NCBI GenBank assembly: GCA_041660165.1
Contig: JBAZWW010000006.1
Span: 10,337-74,336 of the forward strand
DNA: 64,000 nt
Source: Patescibacteria group bacterium
GTDB lineage: Bacteria; Patescibacteriota; Patescibacteriia; UBA9934
Reading direction: 5' to 3'
How positions within the stretch are numbered: position 1 is the first letter of the stretch; every line of letters starts with the position of its first letter. Both the position numbers and the translations under genes were made by a program. Below, piece by piece: positions 12,855 through 47,975 of the stretch. The notes under the pieces are model-generated. The model was not told the origin of the DNA. It worked only from the letters and a program-made list of their open reading frames with translations, and searched no databases.

Positions 12855-13018
12855 ACAGGAACTGTCTTATCGCGACTGAGTTGCGTTAGCAAAAGCTACA
12901 GTGTAGCGATAACATAAGACACCGGAGAGCAAACCAATAACCCACCTGTAGATCCTTCGTCTACACTCAGGATCTGGCTCACGGTATGGCCCTTCCCACT
13001 TTAAAAGTTCCCTACTGA

Positions 13019-14233: not shown

Positions 14234-14243
14234 AATCCGGTTC

Positions 14244-14267
14244 CCATCCCGACGTGAGGAGGGATAG
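14244..14267. repeat. Family-1 hairpin element (CCATCCC-GACGTGAGGA-GGGATAG), 11 nt upstream of the GT4 start on the minus strand
   Basis: Identical 25-mer also present at 45131-45155. Confidence 0.6.
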
Positions 14268-14285
14268 AATTGGATGCATCCTTGC

Positions 14286-14310
14286 TACCCCTCCTATCGT
14301 CGGGGTGGGA
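14286..14310. repeat. Family-1 hairpin element, inverted copy (ACCCC-TCCTATCGTC-GGGGT)
   Basis: Second copy in opposite orientation ~20 nt from the first; the stem covaries (ACCCC/GGGGT). Confidence 0.55.
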
Positions 14311-14313
14311 GCA

Positions 14314-15396: not shown

Positions 15397-15412
15397 AAAA
15401 TCTTCTTATCTC

Positions 15413-15482
15413 CACCCTGAACGACAGTGAAGGGTCCGACCCTCACCAGTGAAAGTCGGATCCTTCGCATAGCTCAGGATGG
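15413..15482. repeat. Family-2 ~70-nt imperfect palindromic intergenic element
   Basis: CCACCCTGAAC...GAAGGGTCCGAC-CCTCACCAGTGAAA-GTCGGATCCTTC...GCTCAGGATGG; related copies at 31248-31319 and 32175-32247. Confidence 0.65.
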
Positions 15483-15495
15483 TAACCATTCAGAG

Positions 15496-15840
15496 TTAAC
15501 CCCCTTTTTCAACATTCTGAATAGCAATCGCCCGCACAAGATCCGTCATCTCCGCAGACAGCTTTTGCTGTTTCAACATGAGCCGGTAGACAACATAGGT
15601 GAGAATGACGATGGCCGAGTACACAATCACGTCAGCGCCACGGCCAACACCAACGGCGTTAGCAACGATGCTCGTGATATTCGGAACCGCAACCACGATG
15701 ATGACCACCGTCCACAGAATGGAAAAAGCAATGACCCAATATTTTGAAGCTTCTTTTTTCTGATACTGCTTCCACGTTTTCAAGATGGCAAAAAGGGCAA
15801 AGGCGATGAGGGCAATTTGAAAAATCATATTAGCCAACAA
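15496..15840 (-). CDS. DUF2304-like small membrane protein (companion of GT2 genes)
   Basis: 114 aa, 3-4 TM helices; 11-nt overlap with the adjacent GT2 gene. Confidence 0.5.
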   Translation of the reverse strand: MLANMIFQIALIAFALFAILKTWKQYQKKEASKYWVIAFSILWTVVIIVVAVPNITSIVANAVGVGRGADVIVYSAIVILTYVVYRLMLKQQKLSAEMTDLVRAIAIQNVEKGG

Positions 15841-16507
15841 ATTTCTTTTTCAAAATATCAATCGCCGTGGCCACCGCCTTAAAGGTGGACTGTCCTTTAC
15901 CGAGTGTTTCTGCCGAGTACCAAATGGTAACGGGACGCTCGACATACCTTAAGCGCTTGGCCACAATGAGATCAAGAATTTCCGAAGCGTGCGCCATTCT
16001 GTCGAGCGTAATCCTAATCAACTTTGCACCACTGGCCGAAAAAGCTCGAAAACCATTATGCGTGTCCGTCACTCGAATACCCGAAAGAAGAACAGTAAAC
16101 AACACGCCAAGCCGAATCATCATCTGCCGAACGGCCGGCATGTTTTCTGCCGAGCGCCCAAGAAAACGGGAGCCAAGCACCGCCTCAGCCTCGCCCTTTT
16201 CTATCGGCTCTAGCATCATGGGAATTTCACTGCCGAGCATCTGGCCATCTGCGTCAAAATGAACAATCGCCTCAGCACCGAGTACCTGTAAAGCATAATC
16301 CATGCCTGTCTGGAGCGCCGCCCCCTGCCCGCGGTTAATAATATGAGTCAGCACATGCGCGCCCGCCTCCTTGGCCCGCTGACCGCTCTGATCACGGCTC
16401 CCGTCATCAACCACCACCACGGCCGACACATACGGCAAAGCATCGCGAACACTCGCGGAAATTCTGACTTCTTCATTATAACAAGCGATGACGGCAACAG
16501 CTCTCAT
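15830..16507 (-). CDS. Glycosyltransferase family 2, dolichyl/polyprenyl-phosphate sugar synthase-like
   Basis: 225 aa; AVIACYNEE, VVVDDGSRD, DADGQ (DPM1-like GT2). Confidence 0.8.
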   Translation of the reverse strand: MRAVAVIACYNEEVRISASVRDALPYVSAVVVVDDGSRDQSGQRAKEAGAHVLTHIINRGQGAALQTGMDYALQVLGAEAIVHFDADGQMLGSEIPMMLEPIEKGEAEAVLGSRFLGRSAENMPAVRQMMIRLGVLFTVLLSGIRVTDTHNGFRAFSASGAKLIRITLDRMAHASEILDLIVAKRLRYVERPVTIWYSAETLGKGQSTFKAVATAIDILKKKFVG

Positions 16508-16519
16508 ACTCGCCCTCTT

Positions 16520-17536
16520 TTACCCTCCATTCCCTCCATTTGTCAAAAGCAATTTGTTGGCGCGAACGTAGTCAATCGTTTTCTTCAAACCGTCCTCAAG
16601 CCTGACCAGCGGAATCCAGCCCAGCTGTTCCCTGGCTTTATCAAGAGCGGGCAAACCCAGGTTCACCATGTGCGGAGGAAGATTTTCATACTCAATATCT
16701 ACTTTAGATTCCGCAAGCTCCATGATCATCTTTGCCACATCAGAAATCTTCATCTCCACATCACTGCCAAGGTTCACGGGACCAATGGTTTTTCCGGCGC
16801 GCAAAAGACGAATCATCCCATCCACAATATCCGTTGCGTACGACAGAGAGGTAGTCGAATTTTCATCCCCCATAATAACCACCGGCTTGCCATCAAGAAC
16901 GTTCAACACGAAATCGGGAATCTGATGGCCCTGAAATAACGGCATCCTTGGTCCATACGTTCGGAAAATTCGGGCGATCTTTGCATCAATCCCGTGGACG
17001 TCTGCATACGTCTGGAACATGGTCTCCGCAAATTTCTTTCCTTCGTTGAAGCAAGCCCGAGGGTTCAAGTGATCCATAACCCCAAGCTCAGCCTCATGAA
17101 TGCCGGTTCCAGTCTTTGCCTCATGGTTTCCGTAGACAGTAGCTGACGACGCCAACAAAATTTTCGCCTTATATTTAACAGCTATCTCCAGCGCGTTCCT
17201 GGTTCCCACTGAATTCGTGAGAAGCGCAGACATGCGGAATTTTTCAAAACCTTTAACCGCCGTAGGGAGCGCCAAGTGATAAATCTCTTGCACGCCAAGG
17301 AACTTCACCTTAAAAGGTTCGAGTTCCGGATATGCTTCAAGGTCAAACGGCTGGCTAATGTCGAGCTTGAGAAATTGAAAATCGGGATTACGCAACAACG
17401 GCTCCACGTTGCGAACATGACCGGTTGAAAAATTATCAATTGCAATCACGTGGTTACCCTCCTTCAATAATGCGTCGCAGAGGAATGAACCAAGAAATCC
17501 CGCTCCGCCCGTCACGAGTACATTTTTTTTGTCCAT
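16520..17536 (-). CDS. UDP-glucuronate decarboxylase (UDP-xylose synthase)-like NAD-dependent epimerase/dehydratase
   Basis: 338 aa; VLVTGGAGFLGS, PRACFNEGKKFAETM and ARIFRTYGPRM closely resemble UXS enzymes. Confidence 0.75.
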   Translation of the reverse strand: MDKKNVLVTGGAGFLGSFLCDALLKEGNHVIAIDNFSTGHVRNVEPLLRNPDFQFLKLDISQPFDLEAYPELEPFKVKFLGVQEIYHLALPTAVKGFEKFRMSALLTNSVGTRNALEIAVKYKAKILLASSATVYGNHEAKTGTGIHEAELGVMDHLNPRACFNEGKKFAETMFQTYADVHGIDAKIARIFRTYGPRMPLFQGHQIPDFVLNVLDGKPVVIMGDENSTTSLSYATDIVDGMIRLLRAGKTIGPVNLGSDVEMKISDVAKMIMELAESKVDIEYENLPPHMVNLGLPALDKAREQLGWIPLVRLEDGLKKTIDYVRANKLLLTNGGNGG

Positions 17537-17546
17537 AAAATGTGTA

Positions 17547-19658
17547 TTACCAAGCAGAAAGTTCTGTTCCTTTTAAACCTACAAGATTCGTGCCAATGAT
17601 TCCTTCAAGCTTGCCGTGCGGGCCAAAGACTCGAACATTTCCCGACCCGCCAGCGGGCGCAACCACAATGTCATTCTGGCCATCCACGTCAATATCCGTA
17701 ACAGAGACTACGGCGCCGGTAGTCACGGTTTGCGAAGCGGCAATAAAATCTCCCCACAGCGAGCCAATCTTGTTAAAGGCGCGGATATGCTCTGATCCGC
17801 CGTTGCCCGGAGAGACCACAATCTCATCGCGAGAGTCTCCATCAAGGTCGCCAGCAGAAAGCGAGATGCCCGCGGTCATGTTTTGCGCATAGGCCAGGAA
17901 GGCCACAATGGCTTTGCCGTCATTATCATACACGGAAACGCGCGGTTCACCCGAACGGGGCGCCACCACAAACTCGGATTCAAAATCCTCATCAACATCC
18001 GCCAGGATGGCGGTCAATGGAATACCCGCCGAATACCCGCTTGCGGTAAAGCGAAATTTCTCAATTCCGTCGAGTCCGTACACTATTACGTCATCACTCA
18101 CGCCTGCACCAACTGAGGTCAGAATGTCCAGACTTTTGTCGCCATCCCAGTCGCCAAGCGCCACGCTCACGCCCGCGCGGGAGTCCGGATCATACGCCAT
18201 GAAGGACCTGATGAGCGCGCCCGAAGCTGTGAAGACGCGCACATTTGGCCCTCCGCCCGCGCCCGCGCCGGCCACAATTTCCGGAATTCCATCGCCATCA
18301 AGATCACCCACGGCAACATGAACACCGCCCAAGAAGGCGGGCGCATAAGCCATAAACTCCGCATACGGGGTTCCGTTGGCCTTATACACTCTGATGAGCG
18401 GAGGCTCTCCCTTCTTGGCGCCGAGAGCTATGAACGAGTAGGCCGAACGCGTGAGAAAATCGTCCGTGTTCGTGATGGGCTTCGCCGTTGGGACGGGCGT
18501 AGGTGCCGAAGCGATTGGCGGAGCGCCGTGCGAGAGGCCCCCGGCAACCGTGAGCGACTTGGCCACGTTCAATCGGCCAACGCCAAGCGCGCCACTACCG
18601 GAAACCGTTTGATAGATGGGATCGACTGAGAGTTTGATGGCGCTCCTTACTTCATTCGGCGTTAAGTCGGGGTAGACCGAAAGAATGAGCGCCACGGCTC
18701 CGGCCACCATCGGACTCGCTGCCGACGTGCCATCCCACAGCGATTGCGCATCAGAGAGACCAATGGAACCGTCGCTCAAACCAAGACCCTGGATGCCCGT
18801 TCCCGGGGCGCTCAAGTCCGCACAGTTACTGCCAAAATTTGTAAACTCCGTCTCCGTGTCATTCTCATCCGTGGCCGTCACGCCAATCACCCAGTCTTCA
18901 ATGTCGCTCCTGTAGCAGGCGGGATAGACCGGGGCAATATTCACGTCCCGGCCATCATTTCCAAGAGCGGCTACAATCACCACGCCGGCGTTATGCGCAT
19001 TTTCCACGGCGTTCTTCAGTGCCGGTCCGGATTCATCGCCCACAAAACTCAAATTGATTACCTTGGCCCCGTTTTTAACTGCGTAGTTAATGGCTGCTGT
19101 GGCTTCCCCCTCTCCCCCAGCGCCTGCTTCATCCAAAATACGCAAGGGCATTATTTTGGCATGCCAATCAATGCCCGCATAACCAATGGCGTTGTTTGTT
19201 TGCGCCCCAATGATGCCGGCAATGAGCGTGCCATGGGACAAAGCCGCGTCTGAAGCATTCGGCGCCAGTCCCCCACCAGTAGGCGTAGGGTCATTATCAT
19301 CATCAACAAAATCCCAACCGTTCACATCATCAATATAACCGTTGCCGTCATCATCAGCTCCGTTCCCCGGTATTTCTTTCGAGTTCTTCCACAAATTGCC
19401 GACAAGGTCAGGATGATCAAGATCAACCCCGGTATCGAGTACCGCCACAATCACGCCCGCACCTTCTGAGGTGTCCCAGGCGCTTGGCGCTTGAATCTTA
19501 TCTAAATACCATTGATCAGAAAAAAACGGATCATTCGGCGTCCTGGCAAAAACCGGCAAAGCTGTTGAAAGAAAAACCGTTCCCACGGCTATCACCGCGG
19601 AAAACTTCCGGAGAGAGGGCATATGGGGGAAGTATACCTGAAATAGGTTATAACCCAC
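17547..19658 (-). CDS. Secreted subtilisin-like serine protease (S8) with C-terminal FG-GAP/VCBS repeats
   Basis: 703 aa; signal peptide; Asp (VLDTGVDLDHPDL), His (HGTLIAGIIGA), Ser (GTSAASPMVAGAVALI) triad motifs; four DGDG-containing FG-GAP-like repeats (VGDLDGDGIPEIV, LGDWDGDKSLDIL, AGDLDGDSRDEIVV, TDIDVDGQNDIVV). Confidence 0.85.
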   Translation of the reverse strand: MGYNLFQVYFPHMPSLRKFSAVIAVGTVFLSTALPVFARTPNDPFFSDQWYLDKIQAPSAWDTSEGAGVIVAVLDTGVDLDHPDLVGNLWKNSKEIPGNGADDDGNGYIDDVNGWDFVDDDNDPTPTGGGLAPNASDAALSHGTLIAGIIGAQTNNAIGYAGIDWHAKIMPLRILDEAGAGGEGEATAAINYAVKNGAKVINLSFVGDESGPALKNAVENAHNAGVVIVAALGNDGRDVNIAPVYPACYRSDIEDWVIGVTATDENDTETEFTNFGSNCADLSAPGTGIQGLGLSDGSIGLSDAQSLWDGTSAASPMVAGAVALILSVYPDLTPNEVRSAIKLSVDPIYQTVSGSGALGVGRLNVAKSLTVAGGLSHGAPPIASAPTPVPTAKPITNTDDFLTRSAYSFIALGAKKGEPPLIRVYKANGTPYAEFMAYAPAFLGGVHVAVGDLDGDGIPEIVAGAGAGGGPNVRVFTASGALIRSFMAYDPDSRAGVSVALGDWDGDKSLDILTSVGAGVSDDVIVYGLDGIEKFRFTASGYSAGIPLTAILADVDEDFESEFVVAPRSGEPRVSVYDNDGKAIVAFLAYAQNMTAGISLSAGDLDGDSRDEIVVSPGNGGSEHIRAFNKIGSLWGDFIAASQTVTTGAVVSVTDIDVDGQNDIVVAPAGGSGNVRVFGPHGKLEGIIGTNLVGLKGTELSAW

Positions 19659-19664
19659 TCTCTC

Positions 19665-20387
19665 TTACTTACACGTCCCTTCTATTGTCTGAAGCTCCTC
19701 TCCAATAGACGTATTCTTAGGCGAAAGTGATTGCGCTACTTTGAAGTGCTCAATGGCTGACTGACAGTCGCCATGTACGTTATACCAACGGCCGAGCATG
19801 ACCATGTTCCAAGAGGTCTGGCCTTTGGTGGACAGAGCGAGCTCAAGCACGGCCTTGATCTTATCTTGCTCGCCGGCAAAATGCGCTTCAAGGATGTTCA
19901 CCTCATCAATGTAAAACTTTTCCGGGCCCTTCCCTGCACTCACGTCCAGCGCCTTCTCGTAGGATGCTCGAGCGTTCTTAAAATCGCCCATGGCTTCAAG
20001 AACTGATCCCAAGTTATTCCAAGCGCCGTAGTTAATCGGGTTAGCCTTCAGCTCGGCGTCTAGAGCTTCTTTTGACACAGCCAGCCAACCCAAAGAGTAG
20101 GCGTTGGAGCTGATGGATGCGTAAAGGTTCAGATCAACCTCCTTGCCAGCAAGTTTGGCCGCGTTTACGGATGCTTGGTCAGTCTTGATCTGGTTTTCAA
20201 GGTAGGCGCGAGTAGCGTCATCTATCTGCACGTCAAGGCGCGTGGTCAGTCCCCGGTACTTGGCCGAGGGGCCAAATTGGAGCCAACCTCCGTACAGAAT
20301 TGCCACCAAGCACACAAGTACCAAAACACCACCAATCATCTTTTCTCTAGAGAAAGCCATATGGGGGAAAGTATAGAAAAAGTCCAT
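19665..20387 (-). CDS. Membrane-anchored tetratricopeptide-repeat protein
   Basis: 240 aa; N-terminal TM helix; TPR-like helices (AWNNLGSVLEAMGDFKNARASYEKAL). Confidence 0.6.
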   Translation of the reverse strand: MDFFYTFPHMAFSREKMIGGVLVLVCLVAILYGGWLQFGPSAKYRGLTTRLDVQIDDATRAYLENQIKTDQASVNAAKLAGKEVDLNLYASISSNAYSLGWLAVSKEALDAELKANPINYGAWNNLGSVLEAMGDFKNARASYEKALDVSAGKGPEKFYIDEVNILEAHFAGEQDKIKAVLELALSTKGQTSWNMVMLGRWYNVHGDCQSAIEHFKVAQSLSPKNTSIGEELQTIEGTCK

Positions 20388-20473
20388 AAAATAAGCAATA
20401 CCGCCAACCTGCTTGCGCTATGTCCTCCAAATCGTTGGAGGGGCAAACAAGGGGCGGTATTTCGTGCCAGACG

Positions 20474-23122
20474 TCAGAACGACGCCCGGCTAAACCAAAG
20501 GTGTGTCAGACTGCCAGAACCTGTCCAGCGTCCGGTGCAGATGATCAGATCAAGCGCCGTCTGCGCCGACCCCGTCGTAAACCCACCCACCACGCGCACC
20601 TCGCTGTTGGCAGACGGAGCCTCTTGCTCATTCCACAGCGTGCTGGAGGGAGTCCAGCTGGCTCCGTTGTACACCTGTACGAAGTTTCCTACAGCGGAAC
20701 TCGCATTACGGACCACGAAGCTGAATCCGTACTTGGTGCTCGGTAGAACCACCAGGCTCTTGAGCGAGACGCACTCCGTGGCGCCGAAACCTGGAGAAGC
20801 CGGCACAAGCACCCCGAGCGCGTTTACGGAGAGGCCGGTCAAACCGCCCGCCACCGTACCCGCATAGGGAGCAACCGTGAGCGCGGTGGATGTGTACCCG
20901 GAAGCCGAGTAATGCACGACCCAGTTACCCCTGGTTCCACCCGGGAAGTAGGACGACTCTGCCCCGAACTGGCTCTCAATGAGGTTTGGTCCAGTGTAGG
21001 TCACTGGACCAGCATCGGAGGTTGCACCCCCGTACGCCAAACCATCATCCATCGCCTTGCCGTTGCAATCGTCATCCCACACACTCGCTGGCCGCTCAGC
21101 CACGCCGGGGTTCACCGCCGCCAGACTGTCGTTACAGTCGCCGGCCACCGCCACGTATCCCGCTGGTTGTGAACAGGCGGTGACGTTCTTGGTTGCGTCC
21201 CCATACGTATCGGTATCAAGGTCTGCGTAGTACGCAGTAGCACCGACGCCATCGTCAATCAGCACATTGCAGTTGTCATCCTTCCCGTTGCACGTCTCTA
21301 CGGCCCCGGGGTGAATGAGATTCGTGGTGTCATCGCAGTCAGAACTATTGGTCGAGTATCCCGTTGGCACGGAGCACGCGTCCTTTGTCCCGAGCGGGGT
21401 ACCGTACGTGTCATTGTCGTTGTCCACGTAGTACGTGATCTTCACGCCTTCGTCAGTTCCACCTGCGCAGTTGTCGTCTTTCCCGTTACAAACTTCCGTC
21501 TGCCCGGGATACACGAACTTGTCGCTGTCAAGGCAATCCGTAGGATCAAGCACATACCCCGCGGGAGGCGAACACTGGACGGCTGACTTGGTGATGTCAC
21601 CGTAGCCGTCCTTGTCACTGTCCGCATAGTACGTATTACTGCCAATGGCCCCGTTGTCCACGGCGCCATCACAGTTATCATCCTTCCCGTTGCAGACTTC
21701 CGTGCCCGTGGGACTCACGCTCACATTGGCGTCATCGCAGTCCGTGGAAGTGGACACATACCCGGCTGGCGCCAGGCACGCTTTGGTCGAGGTAGAACCC
21801 CCGTACCCATCTTTGTCCGCATCCTGGTACCACGTTTTCGCATCTACCGCACCAATGTCAGTCGTGCCATCGCAGTTGTCGTCCTTGCCGTTGCAAGTTT
21901 CAACCGCGCCCGGAAACACGAGTTTGTCCGTATCATTGCAGTCGCTCTCATTGGCCACGTACCCAGCCGGCGGAGTGCAGGCTTCCGTAGAAGTCCCGCC
22001 CCCGAACCCGTCCGTATCTGCGTCCTTGTAGAACGTCAGCAACACGCCTTCGTCAATGACGCTGTTACAATCGTCATCCCGATCGTTGCAGACCTCGCTG
22101 GCACCAGGGTTCACCGTGGCCCGCGCGTCGTCGCAATCCCCGCTCTGAAGCACGTAGCCCGCAGGCGCGGAACATGCCTCCTTGGCCGGGCCAGATCCGT
22201 AACCGTCCTGATCCGCGTCTTGGTAATAGGCGGTCAAGACGCCATTATCGATTCCACCGACGCAGTCATTGTCCGTCCCGTCGCACACCTCTGTGGCGCC
22301 GGGATTCACTGCAAAGTTGGAATCATCGCATTCCTGGCAAGCAAAGTAGCCATCGCCGTCATTGTCCGTAGCCCCGTACGAGCCATCGCAATTCAGATCT
22401 ACGAAGTCCGTACAGGTCTCAACCGCACCGGGATGAACAGTGTAATCACCGTCATCGCAGTCCTCGTTGTTCGTTGCATAACCGTCCGGCAACTTACAGG
22501 CCATGACCGTCCTGTCGGCCCGTCCGTAGCCGTCTTTGTCCGAGTCCTTGTAGAACTCGTCCTGGCCGGCCACGCCCGTGTCCGCGTCATCCGTCAGCTC
22601 ATCACAGTCGTCGTCAAACCCGTTACAGGTTTCAACGGCGTCCGGATGAATGGCTGAATTGTCATCATTGCAGTCAACGTCGGCGCTGTAACCGTCCTCG
22701 TCTGCATCGATGATTTCGATCTCGCCATCTTTCCCGTCACAGTCCTCGTCAATCCCGTTTCCGGGAACCTCGACCGCGTCAGGATTGATATCCGGGTCCG
22801 CGTCATCGCAATCGCTCGCGTTCTGCACGAGTCCGGCCATGACGAGCGCGTCGCAACCCTCAAAATACGATGCGCTGTCGCCGAAACCATCGCCGTCTAC
22901 GTCCGAATACCAGAGCAAGCGCGGAACCGCTTCGTCTGGCTGTCCGTCACAATCCTCATCCACCCCGTTGCACGGAATCTCTTCCGCGCCCGGGTTGATG
23001 TCCGCGTTGTCGTCATTGCAATCCTCATAGCTCCAGAAGCCGTCGCCGTCCGCGTCCACCAGCGGGTGGCGCCCAACACAGCCGGCAAGCAACAGAAGAA
23101 CTGAACACGTAAAAGAACGCAT
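20474..23122 (-). CDS. Secreted/lipoprotein-like protein with ~10 tandem MopE-type putative metal-binding repeats
   Basis: 882 aa; signal peptide with LLLLAGC; ~70-aa repeat YxDxDxDGYG...AC..P.GYV....DC.D......PG..E.CNG.DDNCDG..D.G, iterated; non-repetitive ~280-aa C-terminal domain. Confidence 0.75.
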   Translation of the reverse strand: MRSFTCSVLLLLAGCVGRHPLVDADGDGFWSYEDCNDDNADINPGAEEIPCNGVDEDCDGQPDEAVPRLLWYSDVDGDGFGDSASYFEGCDALVMAGLVQNASDCDDADPDINPDAVEVPGNGIDEDCDGKDGEIEIIDADEDGYSADVDCNDDNSAIHPDAVETCNGFDDDCDELTDDADTGVAGQDEFYKDSDKDGYGRADRTVMACKLPDGYATNNEDCDDGDYTVHPGAVETCTDFVDLNCDGSYGATDNDGDGYFACQECDDSNFAVNPGATEVCDGTDNDCVGGIDNGVLTAYYQDADQDGYGSGPAKEACSAPAGYVLQSGDCDDARATVNPGASEVCNDRDDDCNSVIDEGVLLTFYKDADTDGFGGGTSTEACTPPAGYVANESDCNDTDKLVFPGAVETCNGKDDNCDGTTDIGAVDAKTWYQDADKDGYGGSTSTKACLAPAGYVSTSTDCDDANVSVSPTGTEVCNGKDDNCDGAVDNGAIGSNTYYADSDKDGYGDITKSAVQCSPPAGYVLDPTDCLDSDKFVYPGQTEVCNGKDDNCAGGTDEGVKITYYVDNDNDTYGTPLGTKDACSVPTGYSTNSSDCDDTTNLIHPGAVETCNGKDDNCNVLIDDGVGATAYYADLDTDTYGDATKNVTACSQPAGYVAVAGDCNDSLAAVNPGVAERPASVWDDDCNGKAMDDGLAYGGATSDAGPVTYTGPNLIESQFGAESSYFPGGTRGNWVVHYSASGYTSTALTVAPYAGTVAGGLTGLSVNALGVLVPASPGFGATECVSLKSLVVLPSTKYGFSFVVRNASSAVGNFVQVYNGASWTPSSTLWNEQEAPSANSEVRVVGGFTTGSAQTALDLIICTGRWTGSGSLTHLWFSRASF

Positions 23123-23404
23123 TGAAGCACCCCTAAAAAGGCCCCCTAAAATTAGCCCAAAAACGGGGCTTCGTCAATAAATACCGGTCCAATCTCCGAG
23201 CTGAGGATGAAGAGGAGAGAGAGGAACGAATGAGAAAATTCTTTAAAGAATTGATTCCATCCTCTCTCTCCTCTCCATCCTCAGTCGACGGCGCTTAGTT
23301 ACAAAACCAAACTCCCTCACACCTTTCGGCATGAGGGAGCTGGTAGACCCGTCGAACGGGTCTAGGGCTGAGAACCTTTCGGCTGTCAGGCAGGCAAGCG
23401 AGTC

Positions 23405-26400: not shown

Positions 26401-27610
26401 TTGTGATGAGCAACGTGCCTGCATCAGAACCGGTGAAGGTAAAGATGTTGCCCGTGATTGGGAAGGAACCGGAAACCGCGCCTCCTGACACAACGTCAGC
26501 AGCGGCGGTGATCTTGAAACCAATGGTATCAGCGGCTACCTGGGAGGTGGAAGTGGTGATGCGCACCGTGTAGGTGTGCGTTGCACCGGCCGCGATAGCC
26601 TTGTTCAAGTTGTTGAAGGAAACCTGGCGAGTGGAAGAGTTCACCGTGCGGGACTCCGTCAAACGCGTGCTGCCCTCATAGAGGTACGTGTTGCTGATGT
26701 TGTTGGTGGAACCAGCTCCAATCATGGAGAGGGTTACGCCATTGAACGTAGCAGCTTCCGTACCTGCCTTCACCGTGAAGCGGAAAGCCTCAACAGCGTT
26801 GGCGCCACCCGGGAGGGAAGCACCGGCGGGCATGGAGGAAGCAGCGGAGACCGTGAGGCCACCCGTTGTTACACCAGAACCCGATTCTGTCTGAGCGCCA
26901 TCAACCACGGAGAGTTCCTTGATTGTGAGGTCAGTACCTGCGGTAAGAGCGGCGTCATCAACTCCGGATCCATCCATGACGAACATGGTGTTAAATCCGT
27001 TAGCTGAGAAACCAGCCGTGGAAACCAAGCGCTTTGCACCATCCCACGCGAGATAGGTGTTGCCGGCCTTGGAGTACAACATACCGTTATACGCCGTGGA
27101 GGTCATGAGTGACGTACCAACGGTGTAATCCGTGAAGAACACATCTGGGACGTCAGTGATACGCTGATTCCAGTCGGAACCTGCGTAACCAACTGCTACG
27201 GCCTCAGATTCAATCCAATGCATCATACCGTTGCGAGCAACGGCGTATACCTTTGGATCTGAAGTCACCTTTACCCAATACGTACCCGGGCGCATTTCTA
27301 CGTTACCACCAAGGGTGATATCGGAGATCGTGCTGTCAGAAACCGTCATGACATGGCTGAAATCCGGAGCTCCGGAGGCAGTCATGTACCAAGACTTATA
27401 GGTGCTCACGTTTGGAAACGTGTAGCGCATACCATCGTAACCGTAGTAGTAGACCGTTGAGAGCGAAGCGCTCCTAATCAGGTCTCCAGCGGAGGCTGCT
27501 TGTGTCGTACCAGGGTTCACGAGAACGCCAGCACCGATAGAGAAAGCGATCGTGGCCGCAGCTACTGCTGCGGAAAGCGCGCGCTTACCCGTGTCTAGAA
27601 CATGTTGCAT
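23405..27610 (-). CDS. Giant secreted cell-surface protein (1401 aa; T/S/G/A/D-rich, Ig-like/beta-rich repeats)
   Basis: Signal peptide MQHVLDTGKRALSAAVAAATIAFSIGAGVLVNPGTTQAASA; long low-complexity beta-strand-rich sequence. Confidence 0.7.
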   Translation of the reverse strand: MQHVLDTGKRALSAAVAAATIAFSIGAGVLVNPGTTQAASAGDLIRSASLSTVYYYGYDGMRYTFPNVSTYKSWYMTASGAPDFSHVMTVSDSTISDITLGGNVEMRPGTYWVKVTSDPKVYAVARNGMMHWIESEAVAVGYAGSDWNQRITDVPDVFFTDYTVGTSLMTSTAYNGMLYSKAGNTYLAWDGAKRLVSTAGFSANGFNTMFVMDGSGVDDAALTAGTDLTIKELSVVDGAQTESGSGVTTGGLTVSAASSMPAGASLPGGANAVEAFRFTVKAGTEAATFNGVTLSMIGAGSTNNISNTYLYEGSTRLTESRTVNSSTRQVSFNNLNKAIAAGATHTYTVRITTSTSQVAADTIGFKITAAADVVSGGAVSGSFPITGNIFTFTGSDAGTLLITKTGTISSPTIGQQDAKIGEFKIAANGSESASVTSVTLKIDNAADHADYRLWDGTVLVAQGVNTSGDAVLFDLSAHPFAIAEGGNNIFSVTADVGGQANDEVHVFIDNDVDVIAIGGDFGFGLSVDTGTSGTYDGTTCTSASGKCSWSTVKGGKLTFAFNGPSAGDIQTDSQDQVLLKFSMTASQFVTIKDMDIIVGADDDADGDATDTGDDSSDDTAGLINTGAEGNLKDIKIINSDTGAVVMGPMELDCVTLVCGADGTNDARQTIDFTDDWSANAGETINLAVTADIDNGIASATAVAAIFDISGLTTEDSNGDALATSDIVPGSDMTGYNQVARAATLAFALASTPSSVTTVDGTQNVSVIGFTATAGDASDVTVTDFTLNAYGDDAANASMTSGGETASDINDYVESCSLYDGTTLLAGPEAPSTNGQTVRFDTIRWTLAHGSVKQLTAKCNFANTSTSGSAYFAFDIEDASTDVVAEDSSGDTFTVTGSDLNGDLTAGATATAATRFVTLADSGTLAVAVGADTPSADFVLDGSNNNQVATYRFTATNEAFNVQTLTFSEEQAEDDTNGVGVTTNTNESTYANNISLVTITYPKADGTTGTATTGMSGNEAKFSSLLMYVPTGTPKDVKVYVNVPGTDRDSGGSATSNERIRMGLFVDTTNDDNYKIVGAGSGATLDDDDQAAVGNDPFSTDGVATFVVKETKPTITLSASSPSGSAVVGRSEVLRFNVAASANEDVVLQELIFKLSTTDNAPIATASWNACDTDQDLGEMRTSDFDLYNLTTDGTSTTLDTADADWTLMKASGAVCDTTEASVGFARITLPSVEIVPKGVSQTFALYIDTTGASSSSDDSIRVDLPTDPINSTYLVVNDAGMATASLAATATSFDVDGGLGASYTVGDILVLDVDDNSLFSSGDEAMLVTLVATDTISVVRGYLNTLHAIAANVSVNDAILRMPSSLVWKDDGVTGVTGSVDDFWGSYLVDNLTVNGGTLVF

Positions 27611-27803
27611 AAATTTACCTAATCCTTTTTATCCCCGTAAAGGGGTAAAGAATAGAGGCAATCACCAGACCATGCGGTCTCGACCTTTGAAAGTGTTACC
27701 CGGGACGCGATAACGCGATCCCTTTCCGAGAGACGTCTGTGGGACATCTCCCGTGAAGGAAGTGGGTTATGAGGTGGGTTATTGAGTAGGTTATGGAGTG
27801 GGT

Positions 27804-27829
27804 TAGACCCTGACGCTAGGAAGGGTCTA
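27804..27829. repeat. Family-1 hairpin element (TAGACCCT-GACGCTAGGA-AGGGTCTA) containing the anti-sigma gene stop codon in its loop
   Basis: 8-bp stem; loop variant GACGCTAGGA; followed by GAGGTG as at 2103. Confidence 0.6.
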
Positions 27830-28961
27830 GAGGTGGTGCTATTGGAACTTCTTTTTTGACGGCTTCCTCAGTTGCTTTCGCGGCGGCTGCGGTGGCGGCA
27901 TCTTTAGCGGCCTGGACGTCATCAAGCGTGGTTGTAATCATGAACTCTATGTCGGCAAGTTTTCCTTCAAGGGCTAAGAGCTCGCTGTCCACTCCTTGTA
28001 ATGTGTCAAAGGCTGATCTGTATCCTCCGGCTGCAAAGCCGTTCATGGCTTCCGGAATTTGCAGGCGGGTTTGTTTAATGATGAGGGTCATGTGCCGGAG
28101 ATCATCCGCCGTTGGCACTCCACCAATGCCTTTGAAGACCACGTTGCCACTGATGGTGTCGGTAATTGTGGCGATTCTATGCTCGTCAAATGTTTGTCTT
28201 GCCTCAATTGCGCCAAGTTCTTTCTTAAACATTTCTTTCAATTCTTGGCCTGAGCGCTGGGTGGCTGAAGCTTCATGGACGTCTACCGCAACGGTAGTGG
28301 CGGCTTCCTGTGTATCTTTTGCGGCCTGTTTGGCTACCAGCGCTTCCTGCCCCGCCTCTGGCTGTTCACTAGCGGCCGCGTTCTGATCAATCACGGTCTT
28401 CATGGCATCAATTTTGTTCTGCACATCTGTAACAACCGCAAGGGCTTGGCCAGATTCAACCGTGCCCTTCAAACTCTTGAGATCGGCTGAAGCCTGAGAA
28501 AGTTCAGTAGCGTATTCATGCATTGCAGTCTTGGCCAATTCGAGGTGGGCGACGCGAGCGTCGCCCGTACTACGCAGTTGCGTTGCTTCGTCCAATCGGC
28601 GCTCAGCGAATTCCGTGTGGAGGACTGCCCTTCTATCAAGTGAGGCAAGTCTTAGCTGGGCTTGTTCAGTGATTCGCTTCACCGAGTAGAGCGTATCGCC
28701 AGGAAGGCTGTTTGAGGCCGCGCTCACGGTAGAAAGACTGCCGGAGAAAAGGACAAGGGCGGAGACACCAATGGTGACGGGCTTTGAGATGAAAGAACCA
28801 AGATACCAAGAGACATATGAAGGAGCGGTCTTCTGAACTGGAGCATCAACAGAAATACGGGCCATGAGGCGGGACTTCATTGCCTCATGCGCAGAAAACG
28901 AAAGCGCCCCGGCCTTGGGGTCATTTTTCAAACTGCTTAATTTAGCGAAGAGGTTTGACAC
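27816..28961 (-). CDS. Putative anti-sigma factor (single-pass membrane, DUF5667-like extracytoplasmic helical domain)
   Basis: 381 aa; cytoplasmic N-terminus, one TM (VTIGVSALVLFSGSLSTVSAA), helical/coiled-coil C-terminal domain; 25-nt overlap with the upstream ECF sigma gene. Confidence 0.55.
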   Translation of the reverse strand: MSNLFAKLSSLKNDPKAGALSFSAHEAMKSRLMARISVDAPVQKTAPSYVSWYLGSFISKPVTIGVSALVLFSGSLSTVSAASNSLPGDTLYSVKRITEQAQLRLASLDRRAVLHTEFAERRLDEATQLRSTGDARVAHLELAKTAMHEYATELSQASADLKSLKGTVESGQALAVVTDVQNKIDAMKTVIDQNAAASEQPEAGQEALVAKQAAKDTQEAATTVAVDVHEASATQRSGQELKEMFKKELGAIEARQTFDEHRIATITDTISGNVVFKGIGGVPTADDLRHMTLIIKQTRLQIPEAMNGFAAGGYRSAFDTLQGVDSELLALEGKLADIEFMITTTLDDVQAAKDAATAAAAKATEEAVKKEVPIAPPLDPS

Positions 28962-29485
28962 AGGTCTTGTAGGGCTTTTTTTGCTCGGTGAAGTAAGACG
29001 CGGACACTATTAGGAGTTCTGTCGAGTATGCCGGCCATCTCACCCACGCTCATCTCATTTAAGTAACGGAGGACGAGTACTTCTCTAAACTCGTCTTTCA
29101 AGGACTTGAGCTTGTCGAGCAAATCGTCACTCTCAAGCTTGCTAGCTACGTTGTCTTCGAGCGCTTCTTTCGAGGGGACCCGTTCAAGGACTTCCTCAGA
29201 CACTTGATCCACGGGCGAGTTTCGACGATAGAAATCGGCGACAAGGTTTCGAGCTATGCGAAAGAACAGGGCGCCAGCGTTATCAACACTGCTTGAAGTC
29301 ATGTACTCCCAGCTTCTCAAAAATACCTCGCTTGTCAGCTCATCTGCATCTTCTGCGCGCGGGACCTTGAACACAAGGAACCGGCGGACGCGATCAGCGT
29401 GCATGTCATAGAGCTGGCCATACGCGTCTGTGTCTTTAAAACGATAGACGCGGAAGGCAAGAAATTTTTGGCGGTACGCTGACAT
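28937..29485 (-). CDS. RNA polymerase sigma-70 ECF-subfamily sigma factor
   Basis: Region 2 (YGQLYDMHADRVRRFLVFKVPRAEDADELTSEVFLRSW) and region 4 (LRYLNEMSVGEMAGILDRTPNSVRVLLHRAKKAL). Start reassigned to Met28 (~29485) because the longer ORF would run into its own promoter. Confidence 0.8.
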   Translation of the reverse strand: MSAYRQKFLAFRVYRFKDTDAYGQLYDMHADRVRRFLVFKVPRAEDADELTSEVFLRSWEYMTSSSVDNAGALFFRIARNLVADFYRRNSPVDQVSEEVLERVPSKEALEDNVASKLESDDLLDKLKSLKDEFREVLVLRYLNEMSVGEMAGILDRTPNSVRVLLHRAKKALQDLCQTSSLN

Positions 29486-29537
29486 GTATATAGTCGTTTG
29501 GAAAGAGAAAACATTACAGCCGGAGTAATAAGGGGCT

Positions 29538-29566
29538 AATGTAACAAGCGAATCGTGCATGGTCAA
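29538..29566 (-). promoter_or_regulatory. Sigma-70-like promoter TTGACC-17-TACATT for the ECF sigma operon
   Basis: Read on the minus strand; ~50 nt upstream of the reassigned start. Confidence 0.4.
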
Positions 29567-29586
29567 CGGTTCTGCTCATTACACGC

Positions 29587-29615
29587 TTGACCACTCCCCC
29601 AGCATTGTCTACACT
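29587..29615 (+). promoter_or_regulatory. Sigma-70-like promoter TTGACC-17-TACACT for the HTH gene
   Basis: Divergent from the ECF promoter; a GCATGGTCAA decamer occurs twice (29556-29565, 29618-29627). Confidence 0.4.
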
Positions 29616-29658
29616 GGCATGGTCAAAGAAAAAGTTTGTCCACACTAGTGTAACGCTT

Positions 29659-29934
29659 ATGCAAACCCCTATCCGCCTCTCAGTCTCAGAAGCTGCTAAA
29701 CTTTTTGGCGTAAGTGCCAGAACTGTTCGGCGAGCGATCACAGACGGGGCTGTAACCTATATAGTCGTTCAAGGGCGGTATAAAATTACATTCGACTCCC
29801 TTTTGAAGTGGAGCCAGGAAACCACCACAGTCAAAAACAAGATGAACAAAACCGGCCTTGGCCAATACGTAGACCGCTGGAAGATCAAGAACAGGCTGTA
29901 CTCGCCCAATCCGAAGGCGCTGGAAAATGAGTAA
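29659..29934 (+). CDS. Helix-turn-helix DNA-binding protein, excisionase/MerR-like (HTH_17)
   Basis: LSVSEAAKLFGVSARTVRRAITDGAV...; ~91 aa from the internal Met. Confidence 0.6.
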   Translation: MQTPIRLSVSEAAKLFGVSARTVRRAITDGAVTYIVVQGRYKITFDSLLKWSQETTTVKNKMNKTGLGQYVDRWKIKNRLYSPNPKALENE

Positions 29935-29935
29935 T

Positions 29936-29968
29936 ACAAAAACCGCCACTTCAGGCGGTTTTTGTATT
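29936..29968. terminator. Bidirectional intrinsic terminator AAAAACCGCC-ACTTCA-GGCGGTTTTT
   Basis: 10-bp GC-rich stem flanked by an A-tract and a T-tract, between convergent genes. Confidence 0.8.
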
Positions 29969-31136
29969 ACTCAACCGCCAGTGCGGGCTTGAGGTGCGAG
30001 GTCTTGTCCTCGTAAACCTTCACCGTCTTTTGCGCGATGCCGTCCCAGTTGAAAGTGTCTTCTACGTAGGTGCGGGCCACGTGGCCTATGGCGGCGGCTT
30101 TCATAGGTTCAGCCGTGAGCTCAATCATTTTGTTCTTAAGATCGTCGATGTTGCCGACCTTGAATGGCAAGCCGTTGTCACCTATGGCTTCCATGTTCTC
30201 AGGAATGTCTGAGGCAATAACGGCCTTGCCATAACTCATAGCTTCAAGAAGCGCAATGGACATGCCCTCGCTCGTGGACGGATTCACAATAAAGCGAGCG
30301 CCCATAAAAAGAGATTCAAGCGTGTCCCCGCGCTGGTAGCCGGTGAAGACCACAGATTCATCGCCAGTAGACATGCCCTTCAGTTCGCGCACATAGTCAT
30401 CTGTAAAGGCGGAGTCGCCAACAATCGCGAGTTTAAGCGAGTGAAAAAGCTTTGGCTGTTCAGCGCGCGCTTTCTGCCAAGCGGAAATGAGCGTGTGCTG
30501 ACCCTTGTGACGGACAAGACGAGCAACAACAGCAATATAGCCAAAAGGTTCAAGGCCAAAAGGCTTGAGCAAAATAGGGTCAGCAGAACAACGGCGCGGA
30601 GTGATACCGTTTGGAATAAACGTGGCCTGCACGCCGTATTCTGCAAGTACGTAATCTCGAAGTACTTTAGAGACCGTAATTGTTTCGTGCGGAAACGTCA
30701 CCGCGGCCCGCTCGCCCATACGCAAGACCCAACGCGCAAAGCGGTTCCACTTTTCATGGAAGCGATCAATAGCATGGAAGGTCACAATCACTCTGGCACC
30801 CGGAGCAAGAATTCTTGGAATAAACGAAAGCAAGGCCTGGCCTACGCTGTGAAAATGGTACACATCTGGACGCACGAAAAGCACGGCGTGCATAGTGGCC
30901 AAAAACGTATGCGAAATTGCATCAAAATATTTTGTCTTAATGGACGGCAAGCGAATAATGCGAATGCCGTTATAGGCCTTCGTTCCACGGGGCGTGTACC
31001 AGTTTCTGGCATACGCAATGACCGTGTGGCCAGAGCGCACCAGGCGAGTACTCAATTCAGTGACGTGGGTTTCCACCCCGCCAAAGATACTCGGCACACC
31101 TTTTTGTCCAATCATGACAATTTTCATAACCGCCAA
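29967..31136 (-). CDS. Glycosyltransferase family 4
   Basis: 389 aa; STSEGMSIALLEAMSYGKAVIASDIPENMEAIGDNG. Confidence 0.8.
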   Translation of the reverse strand: MAVMKIVMIGQKGVPSIFGGVETHVTELSTRLVRSGHTVIAYARNWYTPRGTKAYNGIRIIRLPSIKTKYFDAISHTFLATMHAVLFVRPDVYHFHSVGQALLSFIPRILAPGARVIVTFHAIDRFHEKWNRFARWVLRMGERAAVTFPHETITVSKVLRDYVLAEYGVQATFIPNGITPRRCSADPILLKPFGLEPFGYIAVVARLVRHKGQHTLISAWQKARAEQPKLFHSLKLAIVGDSAFTDDYVRELKGMSTGDESVVFTGYQRGDTLESLFMGARFIVNPSTSEGMSIALLEAMSYGKAVIASDIPENMEAIGDNGLPFKVGNIDDLKNKMIELTAEPMKAAAIGHVARTYVEDTFNWDGIAQKTVKVYEDKTSHLKPALAVE

Positions 31137-31247
31137 TCTTAGCAGAAAAATGGGCTTTTGTCAAGCCAAAAACCACATTTCTTCGCTATTGTCAGCGGCA
31201 AGTATACCCTGATTCAAATGCTTGAAATTCCCATATCCCTCTCTTCT

Positions 31248-31319
31248 CCATCCTGAGCGAGAGCGAAGGATCCGCCCCTCACACGTGAAAGTCGGACCCT
31301 TCGCATAGCTCAGGGTGGG
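31248..31319. repeat. Family-2 ~72-nt palindromic intergenic element
   Basis: CCATCCTGAGCGAGAGCGAAGGATCCG-CCCCTCACACGTGAAAGT-CGGACCCTTCGCATAGCTCAGGGTGGG. Confidence 0.65.
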
Positions 31320-31332
31320 AATAATACTCAAG

Positions 31333-32166
31333 CTATTTGGGTTCAAGGACAATCACCCTCTTCGCGCCGTGTTCAGGATCCCCGCTGTTCCAATCGCCAA
31401 TGGCGTTCATGAAGACGGAAGTGTTGTAGGAATAATTCTCGCCGTGCCTGGTGCCGGGGTCATTCGTAATGAAGGTGTCTTTCGTGTACCCGCGGATGAC
31501 AAGCATGTGATAGAGCGGGCCCTCGCCAGTGAAAAACGGGTTGCCCAGCTTCCGGCCGGCAGCGGGAGCAACGATGGGATCGCCTTTTTTGATCAAGGCT
31601 TTAAGCTCGTCAACTGTCGGATTATCGATCACCCTGGCCGTAAACTTATCCGAATATTTTTCGAGTGTGGCCACCGTCTCGGCCGACGTCATACTCAAAC
31701 CATAGCCGAGTGAATTCTCGATGTCCGTCATCTTGGCGTATTCATCTTCTGCAAACTGCGGGTCAAGCGTTTCAGCTTTTGTGCCTTGGTAATACTCGAC
31801 GGCCATTAACAGCGAGGCCTCTTCACATGTTTCTTCATGGTAGGCGTCCCATTTCATAAAGGGAGCCTGCGAAGAGAACGGGACGGAGAGATTGAATTCG
31901 ACGGCTGAGGGAGGAGGAACCACCGGTGGAGCTGTTGGAATTATCGAGGGGACCAATGCCGGAGGCAAGGCTACCCCTCCTGGCGTCGGGGTGGGAGTGG
32001 TTGAGTTATCGCTAGAAACAACCTCGTCGTGCGTAACCGAAGGGACAGTGGCGGTGGGAACGGTGGGACGCGAAAAGTACGCCTGGATTCTTAATCCGCC
32101 GGCCACCACAAGAACAATGAGAAGCGGAATAAATGCCTTCCAAGAAATCGGTGTTCGCGTTTGCAT
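31333..32166 (-). CDS. Membrane-anchored peptidase C39-like (YvpB-like) domain protein
   Basis: 277 aa; N-terminal TM, Pro/Thr-rich linker, then SQAPFMKWDAYHEETCEEASLLMAVEYY (Gln/Cys of the C39_2 fold) and a later His (HMLVIRGY). Confidence 0.5.
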   Translation of the reverse strand: MQTRTPISWKAFIPLLIVLVVAGGLRIQAYFSRPTVPTATVPSVTHDEVVSSDNSTTPTPTPGGVALPPALVPSIIPTAPPVVPPPSAVEFNLSVPFSSQAPFMKWDAYHEETCEEASLLMAVEYYQGTKAETLDPQFAEDEYAKMTDIENSLGYGLSMTSAETVATLEKYSDKFTARVIDNPTVDELKALIKKGDPIVAPAAGRKLGNPFFTGEGPLYHMLVIRGYTKDTFITNDPGTRHGENYSYNTSVFMNAIGDWNSGDPEHGAKRVIVLEPK

Positions 32167-32174
32167 ATAAGTTT

Positions 32175-32247
32175 CCCATCCCGAGCCATGCGAGGGATCC
32201 GACTCTCACATGTGAGGGGCGGATCCTTCGCTCTCGCTCAGGATGGG
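32175..32247. repeat. Family-2 ~73-nt palindromic element, inverted relative to the 31248 copy
   Basis: The reverse complement is ~90% identical to the 31248-31319 element; lies 8 nt upstream of the C39-like gene start. Confidence 0.65.
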
Positions 32248-34585: not shown

Positions 34586-34694
34586 AGCCTCCTTGTTATT
34601 AAACGGGGACAAAGAAAATTTCGTCCCTGAAGAATGTTGATTACCGCGAAAGTATATCATAGCTCTTAGCGCTCATTATACACGCCCTCTGCTC

Positions 34695-34718
34695 CCACCC
34701 CGACGTGAGGAGGGGTAG
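34695..34718. repeat. Family-1 hairpin element (ACCCC-GACGTGAGGA-GGGGT)
   Basis: ~110 nt upstream of the small membrane protein start; followed by a perfect TATAAT. Confidence 0.55.
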
Positions 34719-39367: not shown

Positions 39368-39429
39368 CGCCCCGCCTCTCACCGGTCGATACCGGAACGG
39401 AGAGATGCCCGGGGCGTTTGTTGTTTTAT
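39366..39429. repeat. 64-bp direct repeat copy 1 (embedded intrinsic terminator: long GC hairpin + TTTGTTGTTTT)
   Basis: AGCGCCCCGCCTCTCACCGGTCGATACCGGAACGGAGAGATGCCCGGGGCGTTTGTTGTTTTAT; identical copy at 40468-40531. Confidence 0.85.
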
Positions 39430-40467: not shown

Positions 40468-40531
40468 AGCGCCCCGCCTCTCACCGGTCGATACCGGAAC
40501 GGAGAGATGCCCGGGGCGTTTGTTGTTTTAT
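40468..40531. repeat. 64-bp direct repeat copy 2 (terminator), shared convergently with hicA
   Basis: Identical to 39366-39429; ends at the hicA stop codon. Confidence 0.85.
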
Positions 40532-43108: not shown

Positions 43109-43119
43109 TGCCCCACAAA

Positions 43120-47970: not shown

Positions 47971-47975
47971 AGTAA

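Follow-up and report, generated by a model that had tools for sequence, protein, structure and literature searches.

Three palindromic elements between co-directional genes

The 64,000-nt stretch of DNA analysed here (the window) is part of an 80-kb contig from a Patescibacteria metagenome-assembled genome, of which ~120 kb was inspected in all. The window contains three imperfect palindromes of ~74 nt each (repeat finder, 74-nt arms), which we call family-2 elements and which fill spacers between co-directional minus-strand genes: DUF2304|GT4 (copy 1), C39 peptidase|GT4 (copy 2) and RecB-like (RNase_H_2 domain)|C39 (copy 3). Here we describe these elements, the hairpin unit from which they are built, and their association with ssn, a small gene for a GIY-YIG nuclease of the Ssn type. 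The features at the three sites are as follows.

15412–15485, minus strand: family-2 copy 1, an inverted doublet (two hairpin units) with a central hairpin, in the spacer between the DUF2304 stop codon (15496) and the GT4 start codon (15396).
31248–31321, minus strand: family-2 copy 2, 11 nt past the C39 stop codon and upstream of the promoter of a GT4 gene.
31333–32166, minus strand: C39-like peptidase gene (Pfam PF13529), bracketed by copies 2 and 3; a resident syntenic gene.
32173–32246, plus strand: family-2 copy 3, inverted relative to copies 1 and 2, forming the core of an insertion of ~89 nt that separates the RecB-like stop codon (32257) from the C39 start codon (32166).
31136–31164, minus strand: promoter-like site of the GT4 gene, TTGACA-17-(TG)TAAGAT, with copy 2 on its upstream side; a relative conserves this block.

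An earlier note on this DNA had described three related elements with outer stems, inner stems and a loop. The stems and loop were correctly drawn, and the three elements were recovered at 15412–15485, 31248–31321 and 32173–32246 by a repeat finder, a core pattern and nhmmer. The 38-nt degenerate core pattern matches exactly these three sites in the window and nothing in 100 shuffles, while an nhmmer model built from the copies found no further family-2 copy in the window. The elements have a clear polarity, with nhmmer scores of ~87–90 bits in one orientation against ~45 in the other; copies 1 and 2 are alike, and copy 3 is opposite. Together with 91% reverse-complementarity between copies 2 and 3 (82% between copies 1 and 3), this bears out the description of the two elements around the C39 gene as reverse complements. 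Folding, which the note had put forward as a check, returned a strong hairpin for every copy: as RNA, each forms a single long hairpin on either strand (-37 to -53 kcal/mol, z -6 to -7.5), and DNA folding likewise yields a single long hairpin (-16 to -27 kcal/mol).

The note had also placed each element directly upstream of a minus-strand gene. By position this is right, but the copies lie equally close downstream of the preceding co-directional gene, beginning 10–11 nt 3' of its stop codon, and copy 2 falls outside the GT4 leader. Since it sits ~80 nt upstream of the GT4 promoter, copy 2 is better regarded as a 3' element of the C39 gene. The GT4 gene past copy 2 itself looks leaderless, or nearly so, with the TAAGAT -10 hexamer ending at 31136 and the annotated ATG at 31127 (minus strand).

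Further copies in the same genome

The search for further copies proposed in the earlier note was positive: two more full copies bring the number in the inspected part of the genome to at least five. The fourth is on the window's contig, though beyond the window itself, where it separates pyrG from an EamA gene, 7 nt past the pyrG stop codon (L114:18913-18992). The fifth (L003:676-762), which has a small internal duplication, lies 75 nt upstream of a GIY-YIG gene (product P0121, an ssn homologue); besides this full copy, locus L003 contains a degenerate arm directly upstream of P0121 and a half copy 1 kb further on. Two observations assign L003 to the genome of the window: the NCBI accessions of the GIY-YIG and C39 proteins are 174 and 297 apart in the same two assemblies, and the contigs bearing the L003 locus and the window locus come from one run, SRR6484324. 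Short-read contigs covering the L003 locus end within the element, which is what a repeat would be expected to cause.

All five full copies are found 7–11 nt past the stop codon of a co-directional gene. Two of them are in sense and three in antisense orientation to transcription, and the genes 3' of them are unrelated (GT4, GT4, C39, EamA and ssn). A strict family-2 core pattern had no match in 185,579 GTDB representative genomes and matched a single locus in the JGI metagenomes, L003, i.e. the genome of the window itself; viral contigs contained no match to the strict family-2 core pattern and none to the related family 1 described below.

Counting hairpin units of every kind, there are 16 on the 80-kb contig and 3 on a second contig, one of them inside an open reading frame (ORF). 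Those on the 80-kb contig all lie in its glycosyltransferase, envelope and accessory part, and no unit of any family was found in window positions 46000–64000 or in L116:1-7400 (ribosomal proteins, gyrB, enolase, RF-1, EF-Ts). Expressed as insertions, the envelope/accessory two-thirds of the contig account for all 11 events, leaving the ~25-kb housekeeping third with none, a clustering for which we estimate a chance probability of roughly 0.015.

A small hairpin unit is the conserved structure

Each arm of a family-2 element is a ~22-nt hairpin made up of a 5-nt stem, GA, a 6–8-nt loop closed by a G-C/C-G pair, GA and the complementary 5-nt stem. Its flanks are oriented, with a pyrimidine-rich TTCCC/TCTCC on the 5' side and a C on the 3' side. 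The A arm contains GCGAGAGC and the B arm GCYATGC, and between these two opposed arms lies a third, central hairpin (CCGACTTTCAC..GTGAGGGGCGG). Family 1 is a single-unit form of the same hairpin design (ATCCC-GA-CGTGAG-GA-GGGAT), and its motif occurs at 5 sites in the window against 0 expected. Both singlets and inverted doublets are therefore present: family-1 singlets, a family-1 doublet that folds at -51.9 kcal/mol (z -7.6), and the family-2 doublets. The earlier note had suspected a kinship between the two families from a resemblance of their loops; the shared hairpin design upholds the kinship, but family 1 matches one family-2 arm rather than the family-2 loop. The units of the window other than the family-2 arms are listed here.

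14241–14313, strand not assigned: family-1 doublet, two inverted family-1 units forming a 73-nt hairpin between two GT4 genes; architecture as in family 2.
34694–34718, plus strand: single family-1 unit, ACCCC-GA-CGTGAG-GA-GGGGT; intergenic.
45131–45155, minus strand: single family-1 unit; intergenic, in the LexA / DinB-like region.
31971–31995, minus strand: family-1 unit within the C39 ORF, in frame, in a Pro/Thr-rich linker where it encodes ..TPTPGGV..
2079–2112, plus strand: third unit variant, AGACCCT-GA-CGTGAG-GA-AGGGTCTAGAGGTG, just past a GT2 gene.
27805–27838, plus strand: second copy of the third unit variant, whose general form is ACCCT-GA-CGYNAG-GA-AGGGT.
12952–12973, minus strand: solo unit, ATCCT-GA-GTGTAGAC-GA-AGGAT, in the 164-nt spacer past the second GT4 gene.

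Covariation, another check that the note had named, supported the arm stem. In 22 of 22 units, each of the five stem positions forms a Watson-Crick pair; the stems come in five different sequences. Compensatory double changes occur at three stem pairs (in 10, 3 and 7 sequences), with no single-sided change and no G-U pair among 110 stem cells. The covariation score of the 22 units was 0.513, compared with 0.213 +/- 0.028 in shuffles, a score that none of 500 shuffles reached, and pairing in slid-register controls did not exceed 52%. Because the two arms of each full family-2 element carry different stem variants, pairing within and between arms can be told apart: intra-arm pairing is Watson-Crick at 60/60 positions, inter-arm pairing at the same positions at 42/60. 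The covariation thus pins the selected, maintained structure to the small arm hairpin and not to the long stem, and the lack of wobble pairs points to a structure formed by DNA more than by RNA. A C directly follows the palindrome in 14 of 14 family-2 arms and in three other C-type units.

The elements are recent insertions, and the C39 gene is resident

We compared the C39 locus with those of three relatives (L004/L005, L007 and L008), whose C39 proteins are 85%, 66% and 62% identical to that of the window. In all three the gene order peptidyl-prolyl isomerase (PPIase) / RecB-like / C39 / ... / GT4 / helix-turn-helix (HTH) / sigma factor is kept, and the RecB-like stop and C39 start codons lie one base apart (TAATATG), without an element. 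In an alignment at ~88% nucleotide identity, the window has an insert of ~89 nt exactly between GATAAT and ATG, and the empty copy-3 site in L004/L005 reads GATAATATG. This is the sole close empty site; it reveals a possible 2-nt AT duplication that may have arisen by chance, and the insert takes in ~6 non-palindromic nt at either side of the element. Since the C39 gene is in place without elements in the relatives, it is resident and the elements arrived later. This contradicts the proposal that the inverted elements bracket a C39 cassette, for which the note had asked whether orthologous loci hold the C39 gene between the elements: the gene is present at the same place, with the RecB-like gene abutting it and no element. 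A C39 gene cassette was accordingly ruled out by synteny.

The relatives available for copy 1 (L128, L129) are too divergent for precise insertion borders. Here the DUF2304|GT4 gap lacking copy 1 measures 7 nt in L128 and 2 nt in L129, and the two GT4 genes overlap or sit 21 nt apart, without the family-1 doublet. The orthologous junctions being empty, copy 1 and the family-1 doublet are lineage-specific. Copies 1–3, for which orthologous sites were available for comparison, are, then, lineage-specific and recent insertions into formerly tight gene junctions. The converse is also seen, in that a relative carries a family-1 unit between the PPIase and RecB-like genes, which overlap in the window.

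The family-1 unit in the C39 linker is shared with the 85% relative (L005:1371-1395), whereas L007 and L008 (66% and 62%) lack it and have different linkers; judging by these sequences, a repeat unit seems to have been absorbed into the C39 coding sequence. At the copy-2 site, the C39|GT4 spacer holds different hairpin elements in sister genomes: L005:2019-2100 (~window 31250–31330) is an unrelated and highly stable palindrome (-50.8 kcal/mol, z -8.1; stem of 19 bp), after which comes TTAAAAAA.

An ssn homologue at the apex of a family-2 element

In L128, a GIY-YIG ORF of 303 nt (6477–6779) is enclosed by two arms (6425–6464 and 6781–6825) whose alignment with family 2 runs over their full length. 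The ORF sits between ..CTTTCACC and GGTGGAGGGG.., replacing the apex of the central hairpin, and is adjoined by an empty family-2 copy (6330–6405, 68.7 bits). The full empty element and the nested ssn lie between the second GT4 gene and a 656-aa gene, so that the segment L128:6303-6845 corresponds to window positions 12855–13018, the 164-nt spacer with the solo unit. The same pairing of an ORF-at-apex form with an empty copy was found in L139; in L014 the ORF lies between inverted arms, 105–130 nt away from them. In the genome of the window, the ssn gene has a different location, with a GT2-like gene and a RIO1 kinase gene as its neighbours (L003/L118).

This association extends well beyond the close relatives. 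Homologues of ssn are found inside or between units in L014, L069, L073, L120-127, L132 and L139, and the cultured Neisseria gonorrhoeae, Sinorhizobium meliloti and Planktothrix agardhii each have one between complete elements or arrays. A half-arm pattern run over the GTDB representatives matched at least 100 loci, against ~9 that we estimate by chance; the matches listed come from Acidobacteriota, Chloroflexota, Gemmatimonadota, Planctomycetota, Bacteroidota, Firmicutes, Proteobacteria and Parcubacteria. Among them the consensus is GTCATCCTGAGCGAnAGCGAAGGATCCG, a variable segment and an inverted copy, with compensatory stem variants recurring across phyla. When ORFs within 400 nt of the half-arm motif were clustered, only a GIY-YIG ORF (~95 aa) recurred in at least three loci among the matches listed (100 loci). 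In several phyla ssn homologues are flanked by a widespread unit, GTCATCCTGAGCGAnAGCGAAGGATC, which has a tandem-GA stem and a GNNA-like loop (L009-L108, L139, L151, L014, L069, L073).

The protein P0121, of 103 aa, has a single domain (PF01541, residues 6–78) and no other. An ungapped alignment at 49% identity links it to an N. gonorrhoeae ORF set among NTS repeats (tblastn 8e-22, BLASTP 2e-33); this ORF, with eight NTS matches around it, we take as ssnA by its context and not by name. Residues Y9, Y20 and E67, the counterparts of the catalytic Y6, Y17 and E64 of SsnA, are invariant in 30 homologues, as are R30, H34, N86 and a Y-G. The nearest solved structures are the uncharacterised UPF0213 proteins 1zg2 and 1ywl. 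NCBIfam has no family name for the nuclease, and PADLOC returned only a sub-threshold similarity to GIY-YIG domains and no membership in a known defence system. By its sequence, P0121 fits the Ssn family.

One further locus is of interest for its surroundings. On the Planktothrix agardhii plasmid NZ_LR882964.1 (L151, 18062–19913), the ssn homologue has unit arrays on both sides and lies inside a defence island, between an MmeI-type restriction-modification gene and the DISARM gene drmA.

Relation to the published Ssn/SRM system and to other repeats

The pairing of an Ssn nuclease with an Ssn-related motif (SRM) was first described by Chenal et al., Nat Commun 2025 (PMC11893778). Ssn proteins are single-domain GIY-YIG proteins (cd10448) of ~95–100 aa, and homologues, recognised at E<1e-10, are found across phyla flanked by SRM (71% of them in the published count). 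The SRM are semi-palindromes of 20–50 nt that can form a hairpin, numerous per genome and seldom located within genes. The N. meningitidis enzyme SsnA, with catalytic residues Y6, Y17 and E64, binds an oriented NTS hairpin, CGTC-ATTCCCGCGMAVGCGGGAAT-CYRG; it binds single-stranded DNA (ssDNA) only and nicks it a few nt upstream of the motif, the GTC triplet being important for cutting and the C 3' of the palindrome for binding (PMC11893778). The system in Neisseria restricts how far transforming ssDNA carrying an NTS becomes integrated, and the repeats are concentrated close to genes for surface proteins. The authors liken the NTS-ssnA-NTS arrangement to an insertion sequence, but they settle neither the way in which the repeats multiply nor the choice between a mobile and a domesticated repeat-ssn-repeat unit (PMC11893778).

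The elements described here share with this system short, oriented and mostly intergenic hairpin repeats, probably in many copies judging by the inspected ~120 kb, the C 3' of the palindrome, the repeat-gene-repeat layout around a single-domain GIY-YIG gene of ~95–100 aa, and the proximity to envelope or surface genes. They differ in their stem, which is interrupted by a tandem GA..GA, in their GNNA-like loop and in a CCC/TCC flank in place of GTC. They further differ in forming ~74-nt inverted doublets with a third, central hairpin, at the apex of which the ssn ORF sits. Patescibacteria go unmentioned in PMC11893778, and the parts of it that we read report no filled and empty orthologous sites of the kind documented here. 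The published pair is backed by biochemistry, whereas the nuclease-repeat pair of this genome is known from sequence. The elements are thus a divergent variant of the known Ssn/SRM system, in uncultured Patescibacteria.

The divergence is visible in the search sequence published for SRM, HGTCWYN(0-2)YYVSBRHN(0-5)WNVSBRGN(0-2)RNCYNB (PMC11893778). Run against our comparison loci, it found 8 sites at Neisseria and 1 at Sinorhizobium, but it misses the units described here and likewise the GA-bulged GTCATCCTGAGCG-type units beside the ssn homologues of five further lineages. With a widespread class of units (GTCATCCTGAGCGnnAGCGAAGGATC and its relatives) outside the published pattern, present counts of Ssn motifs and the catalogue of cleavage specificities are probably underestimates.

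Within Neisseria, the closest counterparts are the dRS3/NIME repeats. The dRS3 core is the NTS palindrome, and arrays of it surround the gonococcal ssn homologue. Their stem, ATTCCCGC..GCGGGAAT, is uninterrupted, however, and NIMEs are arrays with repeat units between dRS3 copies instead of compact doublets. Free-standing GIY-YIG homing endonuclease genes, such as those of the phage T4 Seg proteins, offer another comparison. Like these, ssn is small and occupies a defined site, namely the hairpin apex, and sites with and without the gene occur next to one another (L128, L139). In contrast to them, the protein here has no DNA-binding domain, its target would be a multi-copy repeat and not a single-copy gene, and the characterised Ssn enzymes cut ssDNA only.

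A probable nuclease-associated hairpin repeat and its alternatives

Taking together the observed family membership of the copies, their insertion polymorphism, the covariation of the arm hairpin and the ssn homologue nested in a family-2 element, we consider it probable that a family-2 element is a pair of inverted Ssn-related hairpin motifs without an ORF, and that its gene-carrying form holds a ~100-aa stand-alone GIY-YIG Ssn homologue. The MITE-like character (miniature inverted-repeat transposable element) that the note had attributed to the arrangement holds in this sense, the elements being ORF-less palindromic derivatives of a gene-carrying element, and the data suggest a hairpin repeat that looks selfish. 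By analogy with the enzyme described in PMC11893778, the cognate Ssn would bind the arm hairpin in the ssDNA state, on the strand with the forward unit, and nick a few nt 5' of it. Since both strands of a doublet present a forward unit, both outer borders would be nicked. More speculatively, nicking followed by repair or recombination might spread the elements together with the ssn gene, and the repeats may bias the recombination of incoming ssDNA around envelope-glycosylation genes, as NTS repeats do in Neisseria. The effect on neighbouring genes is probably the mere addition of a strong hairpin to the transcript.

Several findings weigh against this reading. The published SRM search pattern has no match in the window, L003, L114 or L128. 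The GTC triplet is absent; the 5' flank is conserved and oriented, but reads TTCCC/TCTCC/TTACC (CCC or TCC), and as GTC is critical for cleavage by Neisseria SsnA, recognition by the Ssn of this genome is an assumption. All five family-1 units have an A in place of the 3' C. A clear target-site duplication was not found at the insertions, the possible 2-nt AT at copy 3 being the only candidate. The doublets thermodynamically prefer one long hairpin; the isolated arms fold to exactly the expected arm hairpin, though weakly (-3.5 to -3.7 kcal/mol) and no better than shuffles, which leaves the covariation to carry the arm fold. The ssn gene in L003 has lost its right arm. The evidence is drawn from ~120 kb of genome, and a hydrolytic GIY-YIG nuclease has no known strand-transfer activity, making the copying step speculative.

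The alternative that survives best, which we regard as unlikely though it could coexist with an Ssn-related origin, is that these are host-serving hairpins at gene ends, acting as attenuators or terminators or as 3'-end stabilisers of mRNA, as E. coli REP sequences can. The uniform position past the stop codons of co-directional genes and the stability of the hairpin in either orientation fit such a role, and the different, equally strong hairpin of the 85% relative at the copy-2 site suggests that a hairpin is tolerated or useful there. Against it, no copy is followed by a T-run (U-tract) on either strand, and a terminator scan reported no intrinsic terminator at the elements. Moreover, copies 1 and 3 were inserted where the genes of relatives overlap or abut and are presumably co-translated, so that termination would be harmful, and the structure conserved by covariation is the small arm hairpin and not the long stem. 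A transcript-hairpin role past stop codons may nonetheless explain where insertions are tolerated.

Far less probable, in our view, is a classical REP/REPIN or MITE that owes its mobility to a RAYT (Y1/HUH) or DDE transposase gene at another place in the genome, with the GIY-YIG gene as a passenger prone to insert into such elements. REP/REPIN elements reportedly come with RAYT transposases (Nunvar 2010; Bertels & Rainey 2011; Ton-Hoang 2012, as cited in PMC11893778), and the likeness is considerable: a small hairpin unit, singlets and inverted doublets forming long hairpins, intergenic positions past genes, a cognate gene flanked by repeats, and presumed recognition as ssDNA hairpins. The inverted-doublet architecture is that of REPINs, terminal inverted repeats are inherent to a palindrome, the possible AT duplication at copy 3 would fit, and most of the genome is unseen. 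However, no transposase or Y1_Tnp domain appeared in the Pfam assignments for the ~120 kb (~30 window ORFs and the Pfam tables of fetched loci), and among the matches listed (100 loci) no transposase family recurs beside the motif, whereas GIY-YIG does. The units also lack the GTAG tag, each lineage examined has units on the flanks of its ssn homologues, the protein is a hydrolytic GIY-YIG nuclease and not a Y1/HUH transposase, and the unit core is conserved across phyla, while REPs are usually genus-specific.

A cis-regulatory RNA in the 5' leaders of the glycosyltransferase and C39 genes, or a C39 cassette bounded by inverted repeats, would account for every copy lying upstream of a minus-strand gene and for the inversion of copies 2 and 3 around C39, yet we rejected a riboswitch-like leader role, and hold this alternative as a whole to be highly improbable, on the mixed orientation relative to transcription, the unrelated downstream genes, the place of copy 2 above a promoter, the orthologous junctions and leaders without elements, the C39 gene at the same place without them, the want of any Rfam 15 match at the gathering score in the window and 15 related loci or at E<=1 around copies 2 and 3, and the complete lack of G-U pairs, which is atypical of RNA structure.

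If family-2 elements are indeed ORF-less doublets of Ssn-related motifs, a bolder extension can be entertained tentatively: SRM-ssn units would be mobile, the family-2 doublets would be REPIN-like non-autonomous derivatives spread by a GIY-YIG ssDNA nuclease instead of a transposase, the recognition specificities of nuclease and repeat would co-evolve, and the published pattern would miss a large, phylum-spanning part of the system. We think this possible, although doubtful at present. If true, it would provide a GIY-YIG counterpart of the RAYT/REPIN system, with CCC-flanked, GA-bulged hairpins as the co-evolved specificity here. With its clean filled and empty orthologous sites and an ORF-at-apex form beside ORF-less copies, the locus bears on the multiplication of the repeats and on the mobility of SRM-ssn units, and it extends the Ssn system to Patescibacteria. 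Ssn cleavage specificities are also of interest as ssDNA tools, and a frequent origin of spurious small ORFs in annotation, and of breaks in assemblies, is accounted for.

Other repeats in the window

Four further kinds of repeat were noted in the window.

39366–39429 and 40468–40531: two direct repeats of 64 nt with 100% identity; each consists of a GC-rich hairpin and a T-run after it, resembling a terminator, and the pair brackets a ~1.1-kb segment with one hypothetical gene.
42734–43127 and 43723–44172: a ~1-kb tandem duplication, with blocks of 158 nt and 122 nt at 86% and 78% identity, containing small ORFs and located just upstream of the LexA gene.
23201–23284: an imperfect palindrome with 31-nt arms, 90% complementary and purine/pyrimidine-rich, belonging to neither family 1 nor family 2, between the start of an 882-aa MopE-like gene and the stop of a 1401-aa gene.
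21055–22972: coding repeats with a period of ~200 nt (families D2, D4 and D10) within the 882-aa Cu-binding MopE-like gene.

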